Positions 3,433 to 27,473 of a stretch of 35,643 bases of DNA are shown piece by piece. The translations under genes were made by a program, and so were the position numbers. The DNA comes from a virus. Within the stretch, counting starts at the first letter, position 1. Every line of letters starts with the position of its first letter. The stretch spans positions 1 through 35,643 of the IMG/VR virus record IMGVR_UViG_3300031867_000270, one strand, 5' to 3'. The notes beneath the pieces were generated by a model. It searched no databases, had not been told where the DNA came from, and was given only the letters and a program-made list of their open reading frames with translations.

Positions 3433-3452
3433 TAAAGAAAGAAGGAAATAAT

Positions 3453-4004: not shown

Positions 4005-4184
4005 TTAATTACCTTCTTTTTCTTTCAATTCATTTACTATAGTACGAGTAGCCTCTACAACAAAGGCACTAAAAGTAGATTCTTTCCCTCGAATCAAATT
4101 TTCAATATCATCAATTAAATCATTAGGAAATCTAATAGAACGCTGAGTCGTAGATGGAATTACTGGTATTTTAAAATTACTCAT
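4005..4184 (-). CDS. Ribbon-helix-helix (Arc/CopG-like) DNA-binding protein
   Basis: ATG 4184 lies 8 nt after GGAG (the track ORF opens with GTG 4193). RSIRFPNDLIDDIENLI..FSAFVVEATRTIV fits a beta-strand/helix/helix RHH pattern. The gene is antisense to the tail operon. Confidence 0.65.
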   Translation of the reverse strand: MSNFKIPVIPSTTQRSIRFPNDLIDDIENLIRGKESTFSAFVVEATRTIVNELKEKEGN

Positions 4185-4231
4185 ATTAATCACTCCGTTA
4201 TTATTTATTAATTAATATTATAAATTACAAA

Positions 4232-4274: not shown

Positions 4275-4364
4275 TTAAAAGAAAAATATATAAACTATTA
4301 TATATAAAGAATAGTGAAGAAAATGTCGAAAAAGAGAAAATTTTTTATATAAAGTTATTTTTGT

Positions 4365-4393
4365 TGACAAGTTTCGACAAATTTTTTATTTTT
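4365..4393 (+). promoter_or_regulatory. Moron promoter with the TTTCGACAAATT motif in its spacer
   Basis: TTGACA 4365-4370, then TATTTT about 16 nt downstream (weak -10; TATGTT at 4396-4401 is an alternative). The exact 12-mer is at 4372-4383. Confidence 0.5.
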
Positions 4394-4482
4394 TTTATGT
4401 TATTCTAAAAATACATACAAAAGACCACGATAGTGGTCGGAAAATATTATTTAATTTGTAAATAATAAAAGGAGGAATAGTA

Positions 4483-4986
4483 ATGAAAAAAGAATATGAA
4501 TTTTCGGATTTTAGTAATGGAGGGAAAACTAAAGTTATAATTGAAGATGGTAGATTAACTATTTCTAGGCCAGGAATCTTGTCAAAGTTCTCACATGGAT
4601 TTACAGGTGAAAAAACCATATTAATAAAAAATATTTCAGCTGTACAATTTAAGCCTGTTGGATTTGCTAGAGGATATTTGCAATTTGTGCTTGCAGGAAC
4701 TAGAGAAGCTAAAAGTGGAATAGTAATGGGAGCAAAAGATGAAAATATTATTTATTTTGCTTCTGGATTTAACAATGAAAAGATAAACAAAAAAGCAAGA
4801 GAGATAAAAGAATACATAGAGAACTATAATACAAAATTATCTCAAAATAATACTACGAATATATATAATAGTTCTGATAAATATGATAAATTGATAAAGA
4901 TAAAGAAATTGCTAGATAATGGTATTTTATCGAATGAAGAATATGAAAAAGAAAAAAAGAAAATATTACAAGAAGAGGTCCAATAG
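4483..4986 (+). CDS. PH-like (DUF4429-type) domain protein with C-terminal SHOCT domain
   Basis: RBS AAGGAGG. The N-terminal pattern GRLTI...GEKTILIKNISAVQF..GYLQFVLAG resembles bacterial PH/DUF4429. The C-terminus DKLIKIKKLLDNGILSNEEYEKEKKKIL matches the SHOCT signature. Confidence 0.6.
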   Translation: MKKEYEFSDFSNGGKTKVIIEDGRLTISRPGILSKFSHGFTGEKTILIKNISAVQFKPVGFARGYLQFVLAGTREAKSGIVMGAKDENIIYFASGFNNEKINKKAREIKEYIENYNTKLSQNNTTNIYNSSDKYDKLIKIKKLLDNGILSNEEYEKEKKKILQEEVQ

Positions 4987-8551: not shown

Positions 8552-11076
8552 TGAAAAATGTTACAAATAGTTTTAAAAATGATATAAGAACTTATGGTAG
8601 ACAATTAGATTTTAAAATAAAGATAAATAATGTAGATGCTAACTTAGATGATTTTGGGTATATAAAACCATCATTTAATGCGGGGTTATTTAAAACAATA
8701 ATGCATTGTATAGAAGTTGATTCAAAAAACGAAATAGAAAAAAATAGCACAATAAATTTACAAGCAGGTGTCAAGTTAAATGAAAATAACTATGAATATA
8801 TAGATTACAATACATATTTTGTAAATAGCATTGAAAGACAAGAAGATACTTTATCGTATACAGTTAAAGCTTATGACAAAATGGTTGAATCTATGATAGA
8901 TTTTGATTTAATAATAAACGAAGAAATGACATTAAGAAATTATTTATTATTAATATGTCAACGATTAGGCTGGAATACTCAGAATATTCCAGCTACTTTT
9001 ATCAATTCTAGTAAAATGGTAAATCCAAATTTACATACGGGTATCCAATACACATTTAGAGATGCTTTAGATGAAATTGCTACATTATCTTGTAGCAATC
9101 TAGTGTTTTTAAATGATGAATTTTACTTATTGTATCCAAGAGTGACAAACGAAAATATAGATGAAAGTTATCTAAATGAAGATAATGTCACAATAGGAGA
9201 AAAGTACTTCATAAATTCATTAGTATTTAGTAGGGCAGAAGGAAGCGACAATATATATAGAAAAGATGATGAAAGTATTGAATTGAATGGTTTACACGAA
9301 TTTAAAATATCAGATAATCAACTATTAAGTACCAATGATAGGGATTTATATATAGATGAAATGTTCGATTATTTAAAGACAATAGAGTTTTATTTGTTTG
9401 ATATAGAAAGTAAAGGAATATTATTTTTCGAAGCATGCGATATGTTTAATCTTGTTTTAGGTGAAAATACATATCCTACATTACTTTTAAATGATGAAAT
9501 TACATTTGATGATGGATTAACAGAAGGAATGTATTTAGATGCCCCAGGAGAAACAGAAACAGAGTATAAATATGCCGATTCTACTGATAAAAGAATTAAT
9601 CAAACTTATATAATAGTTGATAAACAAAATCAACAAATACAGAGTCTAGTAACACAAATAGGAGATAGAAGTGAAAAGACAACTTCAATAACTCAAGATG
9701 TAGATAGAATTGAGTCATCTATACAAGATATTGAAGATGTAACAATAACAGGAGAAACAAATTATGCAAGTTTATCATTAGCAAACATAAATAGGTCTGA
9801 GCCTTTTTTAATACAAATACATCCTGTTCGTGAAGACAATAATATTTCATATTTATATCCAAGTAGTTATTTATATCCATATGATGAACTTTATTCGACA
9901 ACAAGGACTCTACGATTTATAAGAACTTACGAAGAAGATGGAATAACAAAAACACAAAATTATGATTATGAATTGCCATGTGACTTATTATACTACGAAG
10001 AAAATGACAAAAAGATATATGATGAATTTTATTTAAACTATGAAACTAAAGAATGTAAAGTAATAAAAAGATGTATTCAGGGTTCAGATAGATTAGTTCA
10101 ACCATTAGACATTGAAGAAACAATTACATATGATTATCCCACAATAGATTTATATGATGGCGATTACGAAATACAATTAGTAGGATATGACTATGGTTAT
10201 ATAAAAGCAACATTAATGGAAAAAAATAAATACACTACACAATTTACATCGAAAGTTGAAATGAACAGTTCTATATCACAAACTGCAGAAGAAATAAATT
10301 TAGAAGTAAGCAAGAAAGTGGGAAACGATGAAGTTATTTCAAGGATTAATCAAAGTGCTGAACAAATTTCTATTGATGCTAATAAAATTAACATCAACGG
10401 AACGGTATCAGCAAACGGAAATTTTATTGTTGATACAGATGGTAATATGATATGTAATAATGGAACTTTTAATGGTGGAGAAATAACATTACAAGATAAT
10501 GGTAGCACTGATGAAAGATATTCTGTGCTAAAAATAGAAGGAGATTATGGAGAAGAAACTTATATATCATCTTCTATATTAAATATAAAAGATGGAAATC
10601 AGAGTTCGTGGATTGATTCAAGAGGATTTAGTTCTTTAGATGAAGGAAATAATAATTTAATGGCATCAATTGGAACGGATGGAATTTATTATGCAAATAC
10701 AGGGACTGTCTTTTTTCAATTAGATACTAATTCATGTTATATTAGAAATTTAACGCAAGGTTCATTAGAAAAATTAAAAAAGAATATTAAACCAGTAGAT
10801 GATGATGTAATTAAAATATTAAAAGAGTCAGATATATATAAATTTGATTTTAAAGATGAAGAAAACAATCAAAGTAAACATTATGGATTTGTAATTGGAG
10901 AAAAATATAGAACGCCAAAAATTTTAATTAATGAAGATAAAGATAATAAACCAGTTGGAATTGATATGTATTCAATGACATCTATATTATGGAAAATAGC
11001 ACAAGAACAACAAAAACAGATAGAAAAACTTCAAGAAGAAGTAAATAAATTAAAAGGAAGTGATAATAATGATTAA
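8551..11076 (+). CDS. Tail-associated protein (Tal / minor structural) with C-terminal S74-type intramolecular chaperone domain
   Basis: 841 aa after Dit. The C-terminal GSLEKLKKNIKP...YKFDFKDE...HYGFVIGE...ILWKIAQEQQKQIEKL fits the auto-cleaving chaperone domain of tail spikes and fibres. Confidence 0.7.
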   Translation: MKNVTNSFKNDIRTYGRQLDFKIKINNVDANLDDFGYIKPSFNAGLFKTIMHCIEVDSKNEIEKNSTINLQAGVKLNENNYEYIDYNTYFVNSIERQEDTLSYTVKAYDKMVESMIDFDLIINEEMTLRNYLLLICQRLGWNTQNIPATFINSSKMVNPNLHTGIQYTFRDALDEIATLSCSNLVFLNDEFYLLYPRVTNENIDESYLNEDNVTIGEKYFINSLVFSRAEGSDNIYRKDDESIELNGLHEFKISDNQLLSTNDRDLYIDEMFDYLKTIEFYLFDIESKGILFFEACDMFNLVLGENTYPTLLLNDEITFDDGLTEGMYLDAPGETETEYKYADSTDKRINQTYIIVDKQNQQIQSLVTQIGDRSEKTTSITQDVDRIESSIQDIEDVTITGETNYASLSLANINRSEPFLIQIHPVREDNNISYLYPSSYLYPYDELYSTTRTLRFIRTYEEDGITKTQNYDYELPCDLLYYEENDKKIYDEFYLNYETKECKVIKRCIQGSDRLVQPLDIEETITYDYPTIDLYDGDYEIQLVGYDYGYIKATLMEKNKYTTQFTSKVEMNSSISQTAEEINLEVSKKVGNDEVISRINQSAEQISIDANKININGTVSANGNFIVDTDGNMICNNGTFNGGEITLQDNGSTDERYSVLKIEGDYGEETYISSSILNIKDGNQSSWIDSRGFSSLDEGNNNLMASIGTDGIYYANTGTVFFQLDTNSCYIRNLTQGSLEKLKKNIKPVDDDVIKILKESDIYKFDFKDEENNQSKHYGFVIGEKYRTPKILINEDKDNKPVGIDMYSMTSILWKIAQEQQKQIEKLQEEVNKLKGSDNND

Positions 11077-11608: not shown

Positions 11609-14443
11609 TTGAAACTAAAAGTAAATAAAGATAAAGTCAAAATAATAGAAGGTAACAAAGTAGAAAGCGGAGAATACAACATAACAGAACTAGAATTTGA
11701 ATTTACAGAAGAATATGAAAGTTTGGTAAAAGTAGCAGTATTTACTAACTCATATGGAAGCTATAAAGTAGATATAGTTGATAACAAATGCAGTATAGCA
11801 AATGAAGTATTAGAAAAAGCAGATACTGTAAAAATAGGTGTCTATGCTTACAAATCAGAAAACGAAGAACTACAATTAAGATATAGCCCAACACCAACAT
11901 ATTTTAAAGTAAAAGAGGGGTCATATGTAAAGAATGCGAACAATTCAGAAGAACCAACACCAAGTGAAGTAGAAATATTAGAGGCGAGAATACAACAAAA
12001 TGCAGACAACATAGAAACTTTAGATGAAGTTATTAGCGGACTACACAATTACGACGACACAGAGATAAAAAATGATATATCTGTTTTAGAAGATAAAGTG
12101 GACAACCTACATAATTATGATGACACAGGAATTAAACAAGATATATCATCAATAGAGCGAAAGAATACAGAACAAGACACATCAATACAGAATTTACAAA
12201 ACAACAAAGCAGATAAAACAGAAATACCAACAAACCTATCAGACCTAAACGAAGATACAACACATAGAACAGTAACAGATGTAGAAAAAGAAAGCTGGAA
12301 TAATAAAAGTGAATTTAGTGGTTCATATAATGACTTAACAGACAAGCCATCAATTCCAACAAAAACAAGTGATATAACAAACGATAGTGGCTTTATAGAT
12401 AAAGACGTAAACAACTTAACAAATTACGAGCTAAAAACAAATACGGGTTCTAGCATAGCTTTATCAATAAATAGCAGTACATATGCAATGACATTGCAAT
12501 TAAAGAATAGTGCTAATCAAGTATTAAGTGAAGGCACAATAGACCTACCACTAGAAACAATGGTAGTAAATGCAAGTTATGATAATTCAACAAAAGAAGT
12601 AGTGCTAACATTACAAAGTGGAACTACAACAAGATTTAGTGTAGCAGATTTAGTAAGTGGATTAGTAAGTACAACAGATTTAAACACAGTATTAGCAAGT
12701 TATTACACTAAAACAGAAATAGATAATTTGCTAGGTGGAAAAGTAGACAAAGTAGCAGGAAAAGGACTAAGTACAGAAGATTACACAACAGAAGAAAAAA
12801 CAAAGCTAGCAGGGTTAGAAAACTACGATGACAGCGAATTAGTAGAGCAAATAGAAGCACTTGAAACAGAGCTAGAGCAAACACAAACAGAACTTGCTGA
12901 AACTAATTTAAAGCTAGACAGAACAAGAGCAAGTTTACCAACAGTAAGCGGAGAAGGAGAATATGTTACTTTAGACGGAACAAGTGAAGATGAATTTATA
13001 GAAGCTCCTTTGCCTATGGGAAAGACAGAACAAACAACATACAAGGGGATACAATTATTAAAGGAACAAGGATTTAGTACGCCAACAAGTGATTTTAATT
13101 TTTGGAACAATTCTATAACAAATCAAATTGAGCCAAAAGAAGATGGTTGGGGAAGAATTTATTTTGACAATAGTAGTGGAACAGGGAATGCATACCGTTA
13201 TACTTATATAAAACTTAAAGGTATTGATTTAGAGGAAGAAACTCAATATACAGCTATAGTAGAAATTAGAAATATAGCCTCTAATAATACAGTTAAAAGT
13301 ATTACATTTTGTCAAAATAGAACAGAAGAAGCATTCGCAACAGCTAAAAATGTTCCAATAAGTAAAGGAACAAATAAATTTTTAATGACAACTAAAAGTG
13401 ATTTTACGGGGGTGTATTTAGGCATAAGAATGTACACATATGTTGGTGCTGGAGATATATGTGATTATGAAATAAGAGTAAGTATTGTAAAAGGAGATTA
13501 TACATCTACTGATTATACTTACGAACCCTATGTAGGAGGAACAGCTTCACCTAACCCAGACTATCCACAAGAGATAAAGAATGTTAGTGGAGATGTTAAT
13601 GTAACAGTGGGGAATAAGAATTTATTTGATATAGATAATGCAAATTGGATATTATTTAGGTCTTATTATCCTGCTACTTATGACAGTAACAATGATGGCT
13701 GGTATAATCACGATTATATGTCGTTAGAATTTACTCCAGCAAAACAACAAACTATATCTTTTAAAATAAAAAAGAGAACAAAAGCGACAGGAGAATATCC
13801 ATATAGTGCAGCTTGGAATTTATCCAAAGATGGTAGTGTTGTTAAGTACAATACTGGAAGTAGTAGTTCAGAATATGTAGATGTAAATTATACAATGGAA
13901 GCAGGACATAAATATTCTTTAATGGTATATAATCCTGTATTTATAAACTATATCCAACTAGAACAAGGATCAACAGCCACTTCCTACGTCCCACACCAAC
14001 AACAAACCTTTACCTTCCCGTTATCTACAGGACAAAAGCTAATGGAGGGAGATTACTTAGCTGATGATGGAGTGCATCATGTGAGAAATCAGACTACTGA
14101 AAGTGGTACAACAATAACATTATCAGATGCTAAAAATAATGGTGTGTATGTATGTAATAAGAAAACAACAGGAAATCTAGTAGGACAAACACTAACATTT
14201 GATGAAGCTGTAACAGATGCAATAATAGAATACGAACTAGCAGAAGAAATAATCGAACCATATACAGAAGCACAACAAACAGCCTATAACAACATCAAAA
14301 AAGCACTTTCATATAGTGGACAAACAAACATATATAGTACAAATGAAGTTAGCCCTACATTTAAAGTAAAGGCGTATGCAGATGTATCAAGTGAAATAGA
14401 TAACTTAAAAACAGCTATTGTAGCGTTAGGGGGTGTTGTATAA
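11609..14443 (+). CDS. Tail fibre / receptor-binding protein
   Basis: 944 aa, TTG start after GGAGGTG. Repeated LHNYDDT(E/G)IK coiled-coil modules and a large C-terminal beta-rich domain. Confidence 0.7.
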   Translation: MKLKVNKDKVKIIEGNKVESGEYNITELEFEFTEEYESLVKVAVFTNSYGSYKVDIVDNKCSIANEVLEKADTVKIGVYAYKSENEELQLRYSPTPTYFKVKEGSYVKNANNSEEPTPSEVEILEARIQQNADNIETLDEVISGLHNYDDTEIKNDISVLEDKVDNLHNYDDTGIKQDISSIERKNTEQDTSIQNLQNNKADKTEIPTNLSDLNEDTTHRTVTDVEKESWNNKSEFSGSYNDLTDKPSIPTKTSDITNDSGFIDKDVNNLTNYELKTNTGSSIALSINSSTYAMTLQLKNSANQVLSEGTIDLPLETMVVNASYDNSTKEVVLTLQSGTTTRFSVADLVSGLVSTTDLNTVLASYYTKTEIDNLLGGKVDKVAGKGLSTEDYTTEEKTKLAGLENYDDSELVEQIEALETELEQTQTELAETNLKLDRTRASLPTVSGEGEYVTLDGTSEDEFIEAPLPMGKTEQTTYKGIQLLKEQGFSTPTSDFNFWNNSITNQIEPKEDGWGRIYFDNSSGTGNAYRYTYIKLKGIDLEEETQYTAIVEIRNIASNNTVKSITFCQNRTEEAFATAKNVPISKGTNKFLMTTKSDFTGVYLGIRMYTYVGAGDICDYEIRVSIVKGDYTSTDYTYEPYVGGTASPNPDYPQEIKNVSGDVNVTVGNKNLFDIDNANWILFRSYYPATYDSNNDGWYNHDYMSLEFTPAKQQTISFKIKKRTKATGEYPYSAAWNLSKDGSVVKYNTGSSSSEYVDVNYTMEAGHKYSLMVYNPVFINYIQLEQGSTATSYVPHQQQTFTFPLSTGQKLMEGDYLADDGVHHVRNQTTESGTTITLSDAKNNGVYVCNKKTTGNLVGQTLTFDEAVTDAIIEYELAEEIIEPYTEAQQTAYNNIKKALSYSGQTNIYSTNEVSPTFKVKAYADVSSEIDNLKTAIVALGGVV

Positions 14444-14682
14444 TGAACGAATTTTTAAGAAACTTTATAATGACAACAATCTTCAAAATGATAGACAATA
14501 ACATACCAGAATGGCAAGTAAGAGAATACGCATTAGGCTGGTATACAAAAGGAATATTAACAGAAGAAGATTTAAAATCAATAGATGAAAAATACAAAGA
14601 AGAGCCAGTAGAAGAAACTGAACAGCTTGATGAAGAAGTGAACAGCACTGAACAGACTAATGATGAAAGTGAGGAAAAATAA
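14443..14682 (+). CDS. XkdX-like small phage protein
   Basis: 79 aa. GWYTKGILTEEDLKSI resembles the XkdX family; sits between the fibre and lysis genes. Confidence 0.45.
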   Translation: MNEFLRNFIMTTIFKMIDNNIPEWQVREYALGWYTKGILTEEDLKSIDEKYKEEPVEETEQLDEEVNSTEQTNDESEEK

Positions 14683-15002
14683 TGGAACATATAACAATAG
14701 GTCAAATAACAAATGCAATAACATTAATAATGGTAATAGTAGGTGCATTTGCTACAATATATAAATTTGTGCACGATGCATTTTTCGACAAATTAAAATG
14801 TTTAGAAGGTAGGCTTGTGAAATTAGAAGAAGAAACAGAAAGACAAGGAAATGACATAAAGGATAGCAAAGAAGAAAGACTATTATTAATGCAAGGGTTA
14901 TTAGCATGTTTGAAAGGATTAAAAGAACAAGGTTGTAATGGACCTGTAACTCAAGGAATTATAGATATAGAAGAATACATTACACAGAAATCTCATAAAT
15001 AG
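14682..15002 (+). CDS. Holin-like protein (single N-terminal TM plus coiled coil, BhlA/UviB- or XhlA-like architecture)
   Basis: TM segment ITNAITLIMVIVGAFATIY followed by a charged coiled coil; immediately upstream of the lysin. Confidence 0.5.
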   Translation: MEHITIGQITNAITLIMVIVGAFATIYKFVHDAFFDKLKCLEGRLVKLEEETERQGNDIKDSKEERLLLMQGLLACLKGLKEQGCNGPVTQGIIDIEEYITQKSHK

Positions 15003-15013
15003 GAGGGGATATT

Positions 15014-16399
15014 ATGAAAAATAAACCTAATAAAATAGTCGGATTGATAATGTCAATCGTAGTAGCAACACTATCATTAGTTAGTGTTTTTTTATTGTAT
15101 AAAAATACAGGGAAAGTTGATACAAATAAAATAGAAAAAGCAGTTGAAACAATTGTTGAAGGCATAGAAACTTATCAAATGTCAGAAGCAGAAATAAACG
15201 AACTTCCTTCTACTAAAATAATAGAACAAACACAAGAGCAAGAAAATGCAATAGAACAAGAAGTAGAAGATGAAGGATTTGAATTACAAGGGAATATTGC
15301 ATATGAAGGCGATAGAGCAAGAAGTTGGGATGTTGAACTAGGCGATTATAAAGGCTTAACATACTACTCACAATTAGATAGCAGATGGGCAAGTCTACCA
15401 TACACAAGTACAGGGAACTCAAGTCAAACAATAGGTTCAAGTGGTTGTGCACCAACAACAGCTTCAATGGTAGTAACTGCAATAAAAGGAGCAATAACAC
15501 CAGATAAGATGAGCAACTTATTTGCTCAAAATGGATACAGAAGTGCAAACAATGGTACATACTTAAGTGCTTTCAGAGCAGTAGCAGATGAATTTGATAT
15601 AGGATATGAAGAAACATATTCATTAGACAGAGCAGTAGAGTTGTTAAGAAACAATCATTATGTTGCTTGTAGTTGTGCGAATGGACTATTCACAACAGGT
15701 GGACATCTAATTCTAATTGCAGGAATTGATGGAGATACATTAAAGATATATGACCCATATCTATATAGTGGTAAATTTGAAACATCTACAAGAAGAGGAA
15801 AAGTAACAGTAAATGGAAATACAGTATATTGCTCAATAAGTAATTTTAGAAGATATGCAAATGCTACAAGATTTTTCGCTTATGCACATAACGGAAATGT
15901 ACCAACAAATAATGATAAACCAGTTGTAACCAATACATACACAAGATATGTAAAATCAAATGGTGGACTTAATGTAAGAAATAGTGCTAATGGAACTAGA
16001 ATAGGTGGACTAGCAAATGGAACAAGAGTAACAGTTGATAAAACAAGTGGAAATTGGTCACATATAACAAGCCCTGTTAATGGTTGGGTAAGTTCAACAT
16101 ACTTAGTAAGTTCTATTACAACAAATGCTACAAACAATACACCTACATCAGGAAAGAAATATACAACAGGATCATATAGAGTTACAACTAATATAAATGT
16201 AAGATATGGACCTGGAACAAACTATAAAAGAAAAACATATAAACAATTATCTGCTAATGCAAGACAACAAAATAGACGTCTAGGCGGAGAATACAGCGGT
16301 TATAGAAAAGGTGTTGTATGTACTATTACAAAAGTAAGCGGAAGATGGGGACTTTCAAAAAGCGGATGGATTTGTTTAGATTTTTGCAAAAAAATATAA
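15014..16399 (+). CDS. Endolysin: N-terminal signal-anchor TM, C39-like/papain-like peptidase domain, two SH3b domains
   Basis: IVGLIMSIVVATLSLVSVFLLY is the TM segment. YYSQLDSRWASLPY...GSSGCAPTTASMV is the Cys-peptidase motif. Two SH3_3-like repeats (GLNVRNSANGTRIG...; NVRYGPGTNYKRK...). Confidence 0.75.
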   Translation: MKNKPNKIVGLIMSIVVATLSLVSVFLLYKNTGKVDTNKIEKAVETIVEGIETYQMSEAEINELPSTKIIEQTQEQENAIEQEVEDEGFELQGNIAYEGDRARSWDVELGDYKGLTYYSQLDSRWASLPYTSTGNSSQTIGSSGCAPTTASMVVTAIKGAITPDKMSNLFAQNGYRSANNGTYLSAFRAVADEFDIGYEETYSLDRAVELLRNNHYVACSCANGLFTTGGHLILIAGIDGDTLKIYDPYLYSGKFETSTRRGKVTVNGNTVYCSISNFRRYANATRFFAYAHNGNVPTNNDKPVVTNTYTRYVKSNGGLNVRNSANGTRIGGLANGTRVTVDKTSGNWSHITSPVNGWVSSTYLVSSITTNATNNTPTSGKKYTTGSYRVTTNINVRYGPGTNYKRKTYKQLSANARQQNRRLGGEYSGYRKGVVCTITKVSGRWGLSKSGWICLDFCKKI

Positions 16400-16410
16400 T
16401 AAATCGCAAA

Positions 16411-16445
16411 TTTCGACAAATTCTGCAAAAATAATGTGCTATAAT
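16411..16445 (+). promoter_or_regulatory. TTTCGACAAATT motif followed by an extended -10 (TGcTATAAT)
   Basis: 12-mer at 16411-16422; TG 16437-16438; TATAAT 16440-16445. Located 12 nt after the endolysin stop. Confidence 0.45.
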
Positions 16446-16495
16446 AAACATGGATTTTATAATTAGAAAGATTATATGAAAACACATCTTTCATT

Positions 16496-16532
16496 GAGGT
16501 AGGGTAGATTCAATCTATTCTACCTCTTTTTT
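16496..16532 (+). terminator. Strong intrinsic terminator (end of the late operon and/or of a short transcript)
   Basis: GAGGTAG...CTACCTC outer stem with an inner TAGAT-TCA-ATCTA stem, followed by TTTTTT. Confidence 0.8.
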
Positions 16533-16563
16533 GCTTTTTATAAAAAAATATGTTATAATAGTG

Positions 16564-16592
16564 TTGACATAAATTGAAATTAGTGTTAATAT
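16564..16592 (+). promoter_or_regulatory. Sigma-A-type promoter pointing into the 3' end of the minus-strand membrane-protein gene (antisense)
   Basis: TTGACA 16564-16569, 17-nt spacer, TAATAT 16587-16592. Confidence 0.5.
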
Positions 16593-16660
16593 TTTTATTA
16601 CAACTTTATTACATTTTTGTAATAAGGGTTGACTAAAAATAATATTAATATTATTATAAT

Positions 16661-16686
16661 AAAAAAGAATAAGAGCCGAAGCCCTT
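16661..16686 (-). terminator. Intrinsic terminator of the small membrane-protein gene
   Basis: On the minus strand: AAGGGC-UUCG-GCUCUU followed by ATTCTTTTTT; overlaps the stop codon. Confidence 0.65.
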
Positions 16687-16864
16687 ATTCATGATAAGTT
16701 GTTTTGTTGGAGTCCGTAGCCTGGACTTCAATTTTTTTATGATTATCTTGGTATTTTATATATGTATTATAACCCAGACTTGCTAAAAAACATAAAACAA
16801 TACCAACTATTAAAAAAATCAAAGCAATACCTAAGTATCGAACTGCTATCACTTCTGCAGTCAT
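16685..16864 (-). CDS. Small single-pass membrane protein (59 aa), hypothetical
   Basis: ATG 16864 lies 8 nt after AAGGAGG (the track ORF opens with GTG 16873). MTAEVIAVRYLGIALIFLIVGIVLCFLASLGY, then a polar tail. Confidence 0.65.
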   Translation of the reverse strand: MTAEVIAVRYLGIALIFLIVGIVLCFLASLGYNTYIKYQDNHKKIEVQATDSNKTTYHE

Positions 16865-16914
16865 ATACTGCACCTCCTTCTTTTGTATTTACATCCAACT
16901 GCCTTAAAGAAAGC

Positions 16915-16965
16915 TGGATGCATTATCTAATAGTTAAGATGATTAATTACTAATTAATGCATCCA
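16915..16965. repeat. Perfect 10-bp inverted repeat in the 5' leader of the membrane-protein gene
   Basis: TGGATGCATT 16915-16924 pairs with AATGCATCCA 16956-16965 (31-nt loop). Confidence 0.6.
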
Positions 16966-16993
16966 ACTTCGAAGGAGTAACAACTTAGCAAAT

Positions 16994-17022
16994 AATATAT
17001 CAAAAATAATACTCATTGTCAA
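16994..17022 (-). promoter_or_regulatory. Promoter of the membrane-protein gene
   Basis: Minus strand TTGACA (17022-17017), 17-nt spacer, TATATT (16999-16994). A degenerate motif copy, TTTCGACAGATTT, lies just upstream (17044-17032). Confidence 0.55.
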
Positions 17023-17089
17023 ATAACTTATAAATCTGTCGAAAACGCCAAAAACCAAGCCATATAACTTGTTTCGCCCAAAATAAAAA

Positions 17090-17126
17090 GCCCTTAAAAT
17101 CGATTCTCACGCGTCGATTTTTGGGC
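17090..17126 (-). terminator. Intrinsic terminator of the XRE/Spo0E-like gene
   Basis: GCCC-TT-AAAATCGA ... TCGATTTT-T-GGGC long stem; the minus strand is followed by TTTTTATTTT. Confidence 0.7.
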
Positions 17127-17461
17127 TATTTTTCTTGATTTCTGTACTCATCGCTAATATTCAAAACTAGGTCTAACAACTGACTAATTTCCATAGTTTC
17201 TTTTGCATTTATACCATATTTATCTATACATTCATGCATCTTATTTCTCAAATCTTCAATATCAAGTTTAGTATAAAATAAATCTTTAACATTCACGTTT
17301 AAAGCATCTGCTATTTTAATTAATGATTGTAGAGTAGGATTTATTCTTCTGTTATGTTCTAAATCATATAAATAAGCACGAGATATACCAGTCATTTCAC
17401 TTAAAGCTTTAATAGATAAATTTGCTTTTTCTCTAAATTCTTTTATTACAAAAATATACAT
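17126..17461 (-). CDS. SinR/XRE-family HTH regulator with C-terminal Spo0E-like motif (111 aa)
   Basis: ATG 17461 after AGAGGTG (the longer track ORF runs through the promoter). HTH: SIKALSEMTGISRAYLYDLEHNRRINPTLQSLIKIADALNVNV. C-terminus: IEDLRNKMHECIDKYGINAKETMEISQLLDLVLNI. Confidence 0.7.
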   Translation of the reverse strand: MYIFVIKEFREKANLSIKALSEMTGISRAYLYDLEHNRRINPTLQSLIKIADALNVNVKDLFYTKLDIEDLRNKMHECIDKYGINAKETMEISQLLDLVLNISDEYRNQEK

Positions 17462-17520
17462 AACCACACCTCTGAAATAGTATCTGTATATTTTATAATA
17501 AATATTCAAACTTGAACAGA

Positions 17521-17586
17521 TGACGCTGGTAGCGTCACTTTTGTCGAACGATTTTTCTTGCATTTCGACAAATTCCGTATTACAAT
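17521..17586. promoter_or_regulatory. Divergent control region: inverted repeats plus a TTGCAT-17-TACAAT promoter carrying the 12-mer
   Basis: TGACGCT-ggt-AGCGTCA at 17521-17537. TTTGTCGAA 17540-17548 pairs with TTCGACAAA 17564-17572. -35 at 17558-17563, -10 at 17581-17586. Confidence 0.55.
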
Positions 17587-17622
17587 TTTTATAAATCAAA
17601 GAGAGAATATTTGGAGGAAGAA

Positions 17623-17793
17623 ATGGAAGAATTATATGTAATAAGTAAAGAAGATTTTGAAAAGTTTTTTAAAAAAGAAAGTATTGTTGACAAGAAAAAA
17701 GTTTATGAAAAATATAAAAAACATACAAACAATAATTTGGAAAAATTATCACATTATTATCACACAAGTTTGAAATTATATAAAAATAATTAA
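17623..17793 (+). CDS. Hypothetical small protein (56 aa)
   Basis: ATG 17623 lies 5 nt after GGAGG. Lys-rich; its 3' end contains copy 1 of the 27-bp repeat. Confidence 0.4.
   Translation: MEELYVISKEDFEKFFKKESIVDKKKVYEKYKKHTNNNLEKLSHYYHTSLKLYKNN
17745..17771. repeat. 27-bp direct repeat, copy 1 (ATTATCACATTATTATCACACAAGTTT)
   Basis: Identical to 17949-17975; contains two ATTATCACA sub-repeats. Confidence 0.9.
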
Positions 17794-17905
17794 AAAAGAA
17801 AAGAATGAGAAACGTTGAAAATACTGTAAAACAGAAATGTGCAAGATTGAGCAAAAACAACAAAAACGTACCCCTCTCTCGCTACCAATATTTTTCAAAT
17901 GCCTA

Positions 17906-17944
17906 AAAATAGCAAGTTTCATACGATTTGAGACTTGCTATTTT
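17906..17944 (-). terminator. Hairpin downstream of int (terminator-like, inside the putative attP region)
   Basis: 12-bp perfect stem: AAAATAGCAAGT ... ACTTGCTATTTT. Confidence 0.55.
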
Positions 17945-17948
17945 AATT

Positions 17949-17975
17949 ATTATCACATTATTATCACACAAGTTT
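17949..17975. repeat. 27-bp direct repeat, copy 2, abutting the integrase stop codon
   Basis: Identical to 17745-17771. Confidence 0.9.
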
Positions 17976-19110
17976 AGAATAAAGAGTTTAATTTATCAAT
18001 TGCAATATCTTTTTGACTTTTTGAGCTATGCATGTAAATTTGTGTAATGCTAATTGCAGTATGTCCCATTAATTCAGCAACAGTTTGAATATCTATTCCA
18101 TTTTTTAATAACATAGAACCATATGTATGTCTTATTGCGTGAAATTTTCTATGAGGTAGATCACATGCTTTTAAAATTTTAGTCCATTCTGTAGAAACAT
18201 TTTTACCTTTAAGAGGATTATTATTTTCATCGTGGAATAATAGTCCATTTTTCTTTTTAACTTTTGCAAGTTCATCAACTAAATTACTAGGGAGTGGAAC
18301 AGTTCTGTATGAATTTTGAGTTTTAGGAACCTGAAAAACGGTTTCAATATGTTTATGAGTATCATCATCATATACATAAACTTCTTTTACACTTCTATCT
18401 ACAGTTGCTTCTTTTTTATCTAGATCAACGAATTTCCAATCAATAGCAAGTAGTTCTCCCATTCTAAAACCTGTAGCAATATCAAACAAAAATAGAAGAT
18501 AAAATTGAATATTATTTGTATCTAGTAAATATTTTTTTATAATAGATATTTCTTCTTCTGATAGAATTTCAACTTTTCTTCTCTTATTCTTTATAATATC
18601 TGATTTATTTCCTTTTATATTGACATTTAAGCAAGGATTTTTTAATATATATCCGTTTATAATACACCAATTAAAAAAGGTTTTTAGAGTTGAATTTAGA
18701 GTCTTTAATTGTGAATATGAATAATCTTTTTTATATAAATCATTATAATAGTTTTGCAACTGCATTAAATTGAAGCTATGTACTTTATTTCCAGCAATAG
18801 AAGAATCTCTAACATAATTTCTATATATACCCTCGTAACGCTGGAAAGTAGATGGTTTTATTTTAGAAGAATTGTGTAAATAATCAAATAACCAGGCATG
18901 CATTAAGTCATTAATAGTAATGTTTTCAAAATCATTAACTAAACCATATTTTAATTTATTGATATATTCATCAGCTTTTTCAATAGCTTCTCTTTCACAT
19001 TCTCCATAAAAAGTTTTTCTTATTCTAGTTCCATCAGCTTTAAAACCGACAGTTCTGGTAACACGAAAATATTTCTTTCCATTCATTTCAAAGTTGGTCT
19101 TTTTAGCCAT
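17974..19110 (-). CDS. int: Tyrosine integrase
   Basis: 378 aa. The C-terminal catalytic pattern HAIRHTYGSMLL...GHTAISITQIYMH gives the R-H-R-Y residues. N-terminal SAM-like domain. Confidence 0.92.
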   Translation of the reverse strand: MAKKTNFEMNGKKYFRVTRTVGFKADGTRIRKTFYGECEREAIEKADEYINKLKYGLVNDFENITINDLMHAWLFDYLHNSSKIKPSTFQRYEGIYRNYVRDSSIAGNKVHSFNLMQLQNYYNDLYKKDYSYSQLKTLNSTLKTFFNWCIINGYILKNPCLNVNIKGNKSDIIKNKRRKVEILSEEEISIIKKYLLDTNNIQFYLLFLFDIATGFRMGELLAIDWKFVDLDKKEATVDRSVKEVYVYDDDTHKHIETVFQVPKTQNSYRTVPLPSNLVDELAKVKKKNGLLFHDENNNPLKGKNVSTEWTKILKACDLPHRKFHAIRHTYGSMLLKNGIDIQTVAELMGHTAISITQIYMHSSKSQKDIAIDKLNSLF

Positions 19111-19128
19111 AACAACCTCCTATAAAAT

Positions 19129-19154
19129 AAGATAAGTATATTTCAACTTATCTT
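19129..19154 (-). terminator. Hairpin between the repressor gene and int
   Basis: AAGATAAGT-8 nt-ACTTATCTT, overlapping the repressor stop. Confidence 0.4.
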
Positions 19155-19795
19155 TAGTTTATTTCAAATTTTCCTATGTATTTACCTAATATCTTAATAG
19201 GTGTCTTTTTATCATATATTTGCCTTTTAAAACTCTCATCTGTACTCATAGGCTCTAGGAATACGAAATCTCCTTGTTTTGCAAATCTTTTTAATGTAGC
19301 ATCATAACCATTTACTAATACAACGGCTATATCTCCATCATCAACAATATCTTGCTTTCTAATAAGAGCATAAGCACCATTTCTAATTACTTTATTCATT
19401 GATTCGCCGTCTACTTTTAAGAAGAAACACTCTTCTGGATTTATAATTCCCATTAATGCAGGGTCAATAGGCAAGTATCCATTTAAACATTCTTCTGCCC
19501 AGTTAGGTTGCCCTGCTGATATTTTGCCGTATACAGGTGTCATAAATAACTTATTTGAAATGTTTTCATTCTTGTTATCTTTATCCTCAACTAAATCACT
19601 TTTTAATATATTAAAATAATTTGCTAATAATTCTATCTTATCTATTCTAGGATAATATAATGCATTACACCAACTTGAAACAGTAGAATAAGGTACATTT
19701 GTAATTTTAGCTATATCATTTCTAGTTTTGTTGTATTTTTCCATATAGTATTTTAAATTTTTAGAGAAAATTTCTTTATTTCCTAAATCACTCAT
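19154..19795 (-). CDS. CI-like repressor (XRE HTH plus LexA/S24 autopeptidase domain)
   Basis: ATG 19795 after GGAGGA. HTH: RNDIAKITNVPYSTVSSWCN. Ala-Gly site in KISAGQP. DGESM ... LKRF gives the Ser/Lys dyad. Confidence 0.88.
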   Translation of the reverse strand: MSDLGNKEIFSKNLKYYMEKYNKTRNDIAKITNVPYSTVSSWCNALYYPRIDKIELLANYFNILKSDLVEDKDNKNENISNKLFMTPVYGKISAGQPNWAEECLNGYLPIDPALMGIINPEECFFLKVDGESMNKVIRNGAYALIRKQDIVDDGDIAVVLVNGYDATLKRFAKQGDFVFLEPMSTDESFKRQIYDKKTPIKILGKYIGKFEIN

Positions 19796-19887
19796 TTTAT
19801 AAATCCTCCATGCACTAATATTAACACATTTTTTTAAAAAATGCAAAAAAAATTATAGAAAAACTAAAATTTTTTTGAAAAAAGTAT

Positions 19888-19915
19888 TGACATTATAGTT
19901 TAACTATAATATAAT
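19888..19915 (+). promoter_or_regulatory. Early rightward promoter with a 19-bp palindromic operator
   Basis: TTGACA 19888-19893, TATAAT 19910-19915. The palindrome ATTATAGTTTAACTATAAT at 19892-19910 fills the spacer. Confidence 0.7.
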
Positions 19916-19950
19916 GCAAACAGTTTAAAGAGAGAGGGGGAAATAAAAAA

Positions 19951-20148
19951 ATGCAAAAAGCAACGTTAAAGGCATTAAGAATTAATAAAGGATTAACATT
20001 AGAACAAGCTTCAAAAGAGCTAGATGTAAATATTACTACATTATCAAGTTATGAGAATGCAAAAACATTTCCTGATGTTCAAACGATAAATAAAATACTC
20101 GAATTGTATGAAACAACATATGATAATATTAATTTTTTATGCAATTAA
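19951..20148 (+). CDS. Cro-like XRE HTH protein
   Basis: 65 aa, divergent from the repressor gene. LTLEQASKELDVNITTLSSYENAK is the HTH. Confidence 0.75.
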   Translation: MQKATLKALRINKGLTLEQASKELDVNITTLSSYENAKTFPDVQTINKILELYETTYDNINFLCN

Positions 20149-20228
20149 ATTATAGTTTAACTATAATAGAAAAACTAAAAATTAAATTTTAAAAATAGTA
20201 TTGACAAATAAAATCTAACGATTTTATT
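20149..20228 (+). promoter_or_regulatory. Second copy of the 19-bp operator plus a duplicated promoter-like module and a second palindrome
   Basis: ATTATAGTTTAACTATAAT at 20149-20167. AGAAAAACTAAAA...GTATTGACA repeats the module at 19855-19893. AATAAAATC-taac-GATTTTATT at 20207-20228. Confidence 0.55.
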
Positions 20229-20279
20229 CAATAAAATTTTTAAGTATATGCTTATAACACCAAAGGAGGTGGAACGAAA

Positions 20280-20531
20280 ATGAATAGCAACGAAGAGTGG
20301 ATAAGCCTTAATGAATTTATGAGAAGAAGAAAAATAGGATACAACGTAGCAATGCAGATGATAACAAATAATGAAGTTGAGTATCAAAAGACAGATGGAG
20401 GCAGATACAAAATAAAAGTTGGTGGAGATTCAGTTAGCACTGAACTTTACAATAAATTACTAGAAAGAGCAACAAAGGCAGAAACAAAGTTAAAAATTCT
20501 AGAAGATATTATTTTAGAAGGGAGGAACTAA
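20280..20531 (+). CDS. Excisionase-family/MerR-like HTH protein (possible Xis)
   Basis: RBS AAGGAGGTGG. ISLNEFMRRRKIGYNVAMQMITNNEVEYQKTDGGRYKI resembles excisionase-type winged HTH. Confidence 0.45.
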   Translation: MNSNEEWISLNEFMRRRKIGYNVAMQMITNNEVEYQKTDGGRYKIKVGGDSVSTELYNKLLERATKAETKLKILEDIILEGRN

Positions 20532-26883: not shown

Positions 26884-27222
26884 ATGGAATTACCAGTAAT
26901 ATATGAAGACTTTAACCCAAGTATAGAGGTTAAAGGAATGATAATTATATTTAAAGAAAAGGAGTTGGGCATGAGAATAGAAACAAAATACAATATAGAA
27001 GATAGAGTATGGGTAGTATATGAGTGTCAAAAAGAAGTAAGTGTATATGATACTGTAATAGAAGAAGTTTGTTACAACGGGATAGAATCATATTATTTTG
27101 GAAAAGAAGGAGTAGATATATACGAGAAAAATATGGTTGCTTATGATGATAAAAAAGGACTAGCTGAATTAATAGAAAGAATAATGAATGAAATACATAC
27201 AAGAGAGGAGTTAGAGAGATGA
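26884..27222 (+). CDS. Hypothetical protein
   Basis: ORF with AAGGAG upstream; an internal ATG (MRIETKY) with its own RBS is an alternative start. Confidence 0.5.
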   Translation: MELPVIYEDFNPSIEVKGMIIIFKEKELGMRIETKYNIEDRVWVVYECQKEVSVYDTVIEEVCYNGIESYYFGKEGVDIYEKNMVAYDDKKGLAELIERIMNEIHTREELER

Positions 27223-27473
27223 CAGCAGATGAAATGTTTGAAGAATTAGGATTTGATTACTTTGATAATTATAATCACGATTATATATACGGTGGAAGAC
27301 TTCTAAAAAGAGAAAAGTATAAAGAACAGTTAGAACAAAGAATTGTAATTGACTGTGATACTCAAACTGTCGAAATAGACCATGGAACACCTGATATATT
27401 TCCTATAATAAATAAAAAAATAGATGAATTAGGAATGAAAGAAATTAGAAAAGAAGAAAATGAAAGGAGCTGA
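27219..27473 (+). CDS. Hypothetical protein
   Basis: ATGA start-stop overlap with the previous gene. Confidence 0.5.
   Translation: MTADEMFEELGFDYFDNYNHDYIYGGRLLKREKYKEQLEQRIVIDCDTQTVEIDHGTPDIFPIINKKIDELGMKEIRKEENERS

Follow-up and report, generated by a model that had tools for sequence, protein, structure and literature searches.

Introduction

Spo0A decides sporulation, on which many gut Firmicutes depend to persist and to pass from host to host. Its binding site, the 0A box, has the consensus TGTCGAA with flanking A/T residues (PMC2731898, PMC3485338). Clostridioides difficile Spo0A recognises the same core as the Bacillus subtilis protein, and the whole C. difficile 630 genome holds 102 perfect boxes (PMC3485338). 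Spo0A sites in which 0A boxes are separated by 3 bp have been reported, and phage phi29 carries six consensus boxes through which Spo0A represses its promoters (PMC2731898). On the side of Spo0A phosphorylation, Bernard et al. (bioRxiv 10.1101/2021.07.15.452460) reported that catalogues of gut phages commonly contain phage-encoded spo0E genes. Here we analyse a stretch of 35,643 nt (IMG/VR record IMGVR_UViG_3300031867_000270, positions 1 to 35,643), called the window in the following, which is the genome of a temperate siphovirus-like phage with an integrase, a CI-like S24 repressor and Cro. The element in question is a 12-mer, TTTCGACAAATT, that recurs in this genome and that a previous sequence-only reading had assigned to a single phage-encoded repressor coordinating the lysogeny-expressed cargo. 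To our knowledge, the virulent phi29 family of Bacillus phages is the only one for which it is established that a phage uses Spo0A boxes directly, and there they shut down lytic expression. The core of the 12-mer is exactly the 0A-box consensus of host Spo0A, which speaks against a phage-encoded binder; it is likely that the 12-mer is an extended 0A box, and that boxes of the host Spo0A type wire the accessory genes of this prophage to the level of phosphorylated Spo0A (Spo0A~P) in the host.

A repeated 12-mer with the core of the 0A box

Four exact copies of TTTCGACAAATT, all on the + strand, occupy positions 4372-4383, 14783-14794, 16411-16422 and 17563-17574, as had been read from the sequence before. 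The 12-mer did not occur in any of 100 dinucleotide-preserving shuffles, and it ranks first in over-representation among the 34,518 12-mers of the window; the 0.013 copies expected under a first-order model come close to the earlier hand estimate of about 0.02. Degenerate copies exist as well, AAATCTGTCGAAA at 17032-17044 and AAATGTCGAAAAA at 4321-4333, the latter one base away from the 4322-4334 given previously. The 9-bp inverted repeat described there holds as well, since TTTGTCGAA (17540-17548) and positions 17564-17572 are exact reverse complements of each other. What every copy, exact or degenerate, has in common is TTCGACA.

Taken by itself, this core (TGTCGAA or its reverse complement TTCGACA) is present nine times in the window, compared with 1.29 expected copies and a maximum of five in the 100 shuffles. 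All nine match the core of the 0A box exactly (PMC2731898, PMC3485338), and in seven of them TTCGACA is preceded by T and/or followed by A/T-rich sequence. Six lie between genes (4324, 4373, 16412, 17037, 17542 and 17564) and three within open reading frames (ORFs; 9894, 14784 and 27368). A third-order Markov model puts the 7-mer no higher than rank 22, since many of the rare TCGA and CGAC words come from the boxes themselves; the tests on the 12-mer and on dinucleotide shuffles are the suitable ones. A chance origin of the boxes is rejected.

The boxes are located in the accessory region between endolysin and integrase and around an insertion of the structural module that holds a ribbon-helix-helix (RHH)-like gene and a DUF4429/SHOCT gene. 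The earlier placement of the motif in accessory promoters therefore stands as far as a non-random, coordinated set concentrated at the lysogeny end is concerned, and fails for the copy at 14783, which is inside a 106-aa ORF. No box, not even in the relaxed form TGNCGAA, was found in the CI/Cro switch. The 12-mer is thus separate from the CI/Cro operators, as had been proposed: the probable operators are copies of an unrelated palindrome, ATTATAGTTTAACTATAAT, one at about 19893-19911, overlapping a TTGACA promoter between CI (19154-19846, -) and Cro (19951-20148), and a second at about 20148-20166, directly after cro. A near-identity search of positions 14000-20500 against GenBank phages returned nothing beyond a 43-bp chance match.

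Promoter geometry in relatives and across IMG/VR

The B. subtilis promoters spoIIE and spoIIG are Spo0A-activated sigma-A promoters with -35-like elements 21 and 22 bp from the -10 and with overlapping 0A boxes. When every box is read as TTCGACA, three boxes of the window, 4324-, 4373+ and 16412+, lie 21 nt upstream of a -10 element, namely TATAAT, TGtTATTCT and TGcTATAAT. The same distance stands out in the related prophages (the window and 31 loci, L001-L031, on which the counts of box position and -10 offset rest). There, a -10 hexamer with at least five of six matches is found at offset 21 for 13 boxes, 11 of them perfect, with 0-6 boxes at each of the other offsets from 0 to 43; 82 of the 115 boxes are intergenic, in genomes with 21% intergenic DNA.

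Scans of IMG/VR for TTCGACAA-Nx-TGnTATAAT, de-replicated into distinct clusters, gave 27, 23, 63, 69 and 10 clusters at spacings of 19, 20, 21, 22 and 23 nt, respectively. Restricted to contigs with a GC content below 0.33 the numbers are 8, 9, 50, 36 and 4, and those with a second box-like 7-mer 10 bp upstream are 2, 4, 30, 8 and 0. More than 60 distinct phage lineages of IMG/VR contain this architecture. Second boxes in direct repeat are found at -10 and +10 bp, that is, with a 3-bp spacer, in 10 and 19 cases, and at most three times at any other offset. Two perfect boxes 3 bp apart are present in L196, L190, L200 and L217, and three in L209.

The sharp spacing optimum relative to the -10, together with the similarity of TCGACA to TTGACA, could also be explained if TTCGACA were the -35 element of an alternative sigma factor with a 21-22 nt spacer. 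Against this, the box is also found reversed, within 17-bp spacers, upstream of complete -35/-10 promoters and in two to three tandem copies, and the -10 is the standard sigma-A hexamer, often with an upstream TG. We regard a sigma-factor element as highly improbable. With Spo0A as the binder, Spo0A~P would instead activate sigma-A RNA polymerase at 4324-, 4373+ and 16412+, the box standing in for a -35 element at a distance of 21 nt from the -10 (in two of the three with an upstream TG), in the manner of spoIIE and spoIIG.

Individual sites in the window

Two of these activator-type sites lie around the insertion of the structural module. The box at 4324-4330 (-) reads TTCGACA exactly 21 nt upstream of TATAAT (4302-4297, -), a predicted activator-dependent promoter of the RHH-like gene 4005-4193(-). 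The RHH-like protein had been put forward as one candidate binder of the 12-mer; the box in its own promoter and the habit of RHH proteins to bind short repeats are in its favour. It does not extend to the other box-bearing genomes: boxes and box-N21 promoters are present in many of the 385 loci that were fetched (3.8 Mb), yet none of these loci contains a homologue, and the only match of the protein is a PHROG family of unknown function. Binding of the 12-mer by this protein can practically be dismissed.

The box of the first 12-mer copy (4373-4379, +; 12-mer 4372-4383) precedes TGtTATTCT by 21 nt, with the -10 at 4401-4406, and belongs to the promoter that serves the moron with DUF4429/SHOCT domains (4483-4986). 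The only tandem partner within the window is found 10 bp further upstream, a degenerate box that reads GTTGACA (five of seven matches; 4363-4369). The only DUF4429/SHOCT homologue in IMG/VR (L086) has another context without boxes, and the 4324 and 4373 sites are therefore specific to the window phage.

The third copy (16411-16422, +; box 16412-16418) is situated directly after the endolysin stop codon and 21 nt before TGcTATAAT (16440-16445). Its promoter is predicted to yield a non-coding transcript of about 85 nt that runs to a terminator at 16496-16526 and has a fold z-score of -4.4. Comparable short transcripts behind box-N21-TATAAT are present in L002, L014, L016, L019, L021, L081 and L083. 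An Rfam scan of the short transcripts assigned them to no family, the sole match being a transfer-messenger RNA (tmRNA) in L008. This tmRNA gene (L008 9167-9525) stands beside the prophage end and is likely the attB; TTCGACA occurs in the tmRNA 5' end, where it is structural, so some box matches are not regulatory.

The remaining intergenic boxes have other geometries. At 17037-17043 (-), the box lies 14 nt upstream of a strong promoter, TTGACA-17-TATATT (17022-16994, -; 11 of 12 matches), which drives the gene of a 59-aa small membrane protein (16685-16864, -). This would be a Class-I-type position, with the box about 53 nt upstream of the start of the strong promoter. The fourth 12-mer copy (17563-17574, +; box 17564-17570) fills the 17-bp spacer of a promoter with TTGCAT at 17558-17563 and TACAAT at 17581-17586, which serves a 56-aa gene (17623-17793); this TTGCAT-17-TACAAT promoter at 17558-17586 is exactly as described before. 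The box at 17542-17548 (+) is the inverted partner of 17564-17570. It precedes the -35 of the same divergent + strand promoter by 9 nt and, in the other direction, the promoter of the gene for an XRE/Spo0E-like protein by about 60 nt. Its position is kept in relatives, with the orientation flipped in some, and the divergent-promoter layout is kept as well, with TTGACT or TTGACA as the -35 and a box in the spacer. One box filling the spacer and a second 9 nt before the -35 predict repression, which Spo0A~P would exert at 17558-17586.

Filling of a sigma-A-type spacer, which the sequence-only reading had made the common mechanism of a repressor, thus applies to 17564 and not to 4373 and 16412, where the box is 21 nt upstream of the -10; a uniform spacer-filling repression does not agree with the activator-type geometry of three other sites.

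Three copies are within ORFs. The second 12-mer copy (14783-14794, +), with perfect extended flanks, lies in the 106-aa ORF 14682-15002 (phrog_1009) of the lysis cassette. It has no -10 at 21 nt, and it is absent from relatives: the L001 endolysin is 67% identical, and the same region there is without a box. This copy is either an intragenic binding site or without a role. TTCGACA at 9894-9900 (+), inside an 841-aa tail gene, and at 27368-27374 (-), inside the 84-aa ORF 27219-27473, have poor flanks and are probably chance copies, two being about the chance expectation (~1.3).

The XRE/Spo0E-like protein and its own palindrome

The second candidate binder of the sequence-only reading was the XRE/Spo0E-like protein itself. 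Its gene (17126-17461, -) encodes 111 amino acids, with a SinR-like helix-turn-helix (HTH; residues 1-65) followed by a Spo0E-like two-helix domain (66-105). The protein matches HTH_3 and PF09388 (E = 1e-9, 38.6 bits against a cutoff of 23), and the signature S93-Q94-x-x-D97 (SQELD-type, with the aspartate) is invariant in 19 homologues. The HTH is nearest to SinR (profile E = 2e-13), and the Spo0E-like structure 2C0S is matched weakly. In an AlphaFold model (predicted local distance difference test score 79), two long helices come after the HTH, and the whole model can be aligned with SinR in 1B0N. Homologues of 45-96% identity are found in metagenome-assembled genomes (MAGs) of uncultured gut 'Clostridium sp.' and Clostridia with 26-32% GC, always at the prophage end between the lysis cassette and host DNA.

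That this protein recognises the 12-mer, and so combines autoregulation with co-repression of all cargo promoters, has a number of observations in its favour. XRE regulators usually autoregulate, the gene is the only protein-coding one common to all box-bearing loci L001-L031, and in 29 of 31 loci the 400 bp upstream of it contain one or more exact boxes. The conserved layout of this upstream region consists of a box, the divergent -35, aaaaatcg-TTCGACAaaa, a palindrome of 15-25 bp, and the promoter and gene. The details of the layout differ between loci. The first box can read either TGTCGAA or TTCGACA, depending on the locus, the number of boxes varies, and box-to-box spacing ranges from 22 to 35 bp. 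Such variation in number, spacing and orientation fits independent boxes and not the operator of a dimeric HTH protein.

It is the palindrome, which in the window is the perfect TGACGCTggtAGCGTCA at 17521-17537 beside the box, that follows the HTH. Across about 30 related prophages its half-site covaries with the recognition helix. Half-site TGACGCT goes with the helix SRAYL(Y/F)DLE in the window, L008, L015, L019, L081, L083, L093 and L105; GTTCGCT with SKSYL in L001, L004 and L011; TGGAACT with SRTYIR in L007, L013 and L027; GTTTCCT with SxSYLSKLE in L017, L022, L023 and L025; and TGTCGCT with SRSY(I/L)SELE and ARTYLVELE in L003, L099, L102, L014, L016 and L021. TTCGACA, in contrast, is constant over at least seven specificity groups. 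Since it is identical in all helix groups, its binder must be conserved across these hosts and is not the HTH of the XRE/Spo0E-like protein. From the covariation we infer that 17521-17537 is the autoregulatory operator of the XRE/Spo0E-like protein, whose gene would then be controlled by its own product separately from the boxes. The palindrome occurs once in the window, is missing at the other three 12-mer sites and therefore cannot account for them. In addition, 110 of 117 IMG/VR box-N21 stretches have no such gene nearby (7 of 117 do; the stretches span 1.6-15 kb and not whole phages), and a 10-bp period of directly repeated sites is what one typically sees for response regulators and not for XRE dimers. 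Recognition of the 12-mer by the XRE/Spo0E-like protein is accordingly very unlikely.

About 100-240 bp upstream of the XRE/Spo0E-like gene, eight of the loci (L002, L004, L005, L006, L007, L008, L011 and L013) share a conserved two-hairpin element, gaatgtatac...gtatacattc followed by gagatagtt...gctatctcttttttat, which is preceded by a TTGACA promoter and adjoins the prophage end. The element may be a small RNA or may belong to the attachment site; it matched no Rfam family in the loci scanned.

Genes behind box promoters

The genes that follow box promoters in other phages bring the box into the context of Spo0A phosphorylation. Stand-alone Spo0E-like genes of 46-48 aa stand behind box promoters in L004, L008, L093, L199, L242, L249, L252, L255 and L297, and the small proteins of L004 and L252 exceed the PF09388 cutoff. 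A stand-alone receiver domain of 153 aa (PF00072, 86.7 bits) is encoded behind a box-N21-TGnTATAAT promoter in L253 (3540-3573) and in L269; such a phage receiver domain may be a phosphate sink or decoy for the sporulation kinases of the host. Several families of 47-72-aa proteins, membrane and zinc-ribbon morons, and short terminator-ended non-coding transcripts also lie behind box promoters. Because genes of the Spo0E-like and receiver-domain types recur, the box is linked in function to the pathway of Spo0A phosphorylation.

A divergent Spo0A homologue in a host of a related prophage

Sampling of host flanks revealed a gene with REC and Spo0A_C domains in L105 (3319-4107, -), 2.5 kb from a related prophage. 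Its top NCBIfam match is Spo0A, over the full length and with E = 1e-30, and its family comprises at least 564 clusters. A tblastn search with B. subtilis Spo0A in the first-fetched loci had found unrelated receiver domains only, Spo0A_C being seen later in the host flanks. In the recognition helix of the host homologue an arginine is invariant, while glutamate is changed to glycine or serine and arginine to glutamine. The lineage thus possesses a regulator of the Spo0A family, and the invariance of its helix agrees with that of the site.

The homologue belongs to a divergent Spo0A subfamily of about 262 aa in low-GC gut metagenomes (P0069-P0188, loci L107-L189), whose gene has in every case the same downstream neighbour, a conserved gene of about 492 aa without a Pfam match. 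In L188, a box with the full extended consensus TTCGACAAATT (position 3451) is located about 100 bp upstream of a pta-ackA operon of the host, which may thus belong to the same regulon as a chromosomal member.

Several observations weigh against Spo0A as the binder. The L105 homologue is divergent, scoring 106 bits where the equivalog cutoff is 200 bits, and is 24% identical to B. subtilis Spo0A. Its recognition helix, STIGRSIQTAIEHAW (nSTIGRSIQTAIEHAW), differs from SRVERAIRHAIEVAW (aSRVERAIRHAIEVAW) of the solved Spo0A C-domain in two of the three base-contacting residues. The spo0A genes of B. subtilis and C. difficile have autoregulatory boxes upstream, unlike the divergent homologue: a perfect box within 350 bp is present in only 2 of 56 distinct upstream regions of spo0A-like orthologues, and these regions are without an enriched 0A-like 7-mer. 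Autoregulatory boxes do not define a 0A box, but their lack weakens the link to a homologue of the L105 type. In 575 kb of host DNA around the spo0A-like gene, box density is about that of chance, at 0.42 per 10 kb. The homologue comes from the host of the related prophage L105. Many of the 22-nt matches in IMG/VR, TTCGACAA-N18-TGnTATAAT (L430-L542), are contigs of giant-virus MAGs (GVMAG).

Some of these points would be accommodated if another conserved DNA-binding protein of the Clostridia lineage recognised TTCGACA and the identity with the 0A box were coincidental. The altered recognition helix, the scarcity of perfect boxes upstream of the spo0A-like gene (2 of 56) and the finding of no canonical Spo0A in the sampled host DNA all favour such a protein. 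It would have to share with Spo0A an exact 7-bp consensus with A/T flanks, a tandem geometry with a 3-bp spacer and the 21-22 nt activator geometry that fits Spo0A-dependent promoters, and the recurring link to Spo0E-like and receiver-domain genes speaks for Spo0A instead. We know of no other regulator with a TTCGACA site and consider a different host protein unlikely. A second, canonical Spo0A beside the divergent homologue in the host lineage is possible.

A proposed prophage interface with host sporulation

Weighing these lines of evidence together, we favour Spo0A as the binder and infer that it occupies about seven functional boxes in accessory-gene promoters of the window phage, a temperate phage that would infect uncultured low-GC gut Clostridia. 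The accessory genes would then respond to the host Spo0A~P level, and so to entry into stationary phase or sporulation. The Spo0E-like domain, with its SQxxD motif, may dephosphorylate Spo0A~P and so act as negative feedback on the host, or it may serve as an interaction module of the SinR/SinI type; the SinR-like/Spo0E-like regulator probably feeds back on Spo0A~P.

A more far-reaching picture, which we offer tentatively and as possible rather than probable, is that of a two-way interface between prophages and the developmental master regulator of their hosts, spread through a widespread lineage of uncultured gut Clostridia. The prophage would read Spo0A~P through activator-type (box-N21/22-TGnTATAAT) and repressor-type promoters and write back through the SinR-like regulator with its Spo0E-fold partner domain, small Spo0E-like proteins and a receiver-domain decoy, thereby setting the sporulation decision and gut-to-gut transmission, and the host Spo0A would be a divergent, uncharacterised branch of the family.

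If the wiring is as proposed, temperate phages of uncultured gut Clostridia switch accessory genes on or off with the same host signal, and this switching is coupled to phage-borne modulators of Spo0A~P, namely Spo0E-like proteins and a receiver domain. The box-N21/22-(-10) architecture offers a handle to predict the set of prophage genes that a lysogen expresses as stationary phase or sporulation begins, and a testable feedback loop between phage and host is indicated. The analysis also draws attention to the divergent Spo0A subfamily, which is large and for which prophage sites could reveal the DNA specificity.

Other repeats in the window

Two further repeats were noted in the window. An exact 26-bp direct repeat, TTATCACATTATTATCACACAAGTTT, is found at 17746-17771 and 17950-17975, 204 bp apart and just upstream of the integrase gene. 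The copies flank a terminator-like hairpin (17906-17944), the first overlapping the 3' end of the 56-aa gene, and the repeat is a candidate attP or integrase arm-site repeat. Another 12-mer, AGAAATGGAAGA, has four copies on the + strand (5314, 17619, 29530 and 30832; 0.015 expected). At 17619 it covers the ribosome-binding site and start codon (ATG GAA GA, Met-Glu), and it is probably a shared translation-start context.

Comparison with known systems

The promoters closest to the activator-type sites are spoIIE and spoIIG of B. subtilis. As there, the box overlaps a -35-like TCGACA that is 21 nt from a sigma-A -10 (in IMG/VR also 22 nt), and tandem boxes lie upstream. Unlike there, the promoters belong to phages of a distant Clostridia lineage and the boxes are perfect, those of the spoII promoters being weak.

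The 111-aa protein resembles SinR of the B. subtilis SinR/SinI pair (PMC3163267; PDB 1B0N) in having the same length and an HTH with a two-helix tail. In L004, L008 and L093, moreover, a small protein with the same kind of tail is encoded next to it behind a box promoter, and sinI is Spo0A-controlled. The tail of the 111-aa protein is, however, Spo0E-like (PF09388, SQxxD) and not the SinR/SinI multimerisation domain, and the window has no small partner gene. With the Spo0E family of aspartyl-phosphate phosphatases it shares PF09388 and the conserved S-Q-x-x-D including the aspartate. Compared with the phage-borne spo0E genes described so far (bioRxiv 10.1101/2021.07.15.452460), the domain is here fused to an HTH, and the wiring consists of 0A-type boxes and not of quorum-sensing receptors.

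The arrangement as a whole has a parallel in phi29 and its relatives, studied by Meijer, Salas and coworkers (PMC2731898). TGTCGAA boxes are over-represented in both phage genomes, with six copies in phi29 and nine here, at similar density. In both, boxes lie at or between promoters, including a divergent pair, imperfect partners are found 3 bp away, and a host regulator is, or here would be, used by the phage. phi29 differs in being virulent; its boxes serve to repress the replication origins as well as the lytic promoters, early and late, and in this way the spore comes to enclose the phage genome. The window phage is temperate, keeps its CI/Cro switch free of boxes, has them at accessory promoters, three of which are of the activator type, and encodes a Spo0E-like domain. 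What would be new relative to phi29 is thus the temperate phage, the Clostridial host, the activator-type promoters and the built-in feedback genes, and not a new kind of system.

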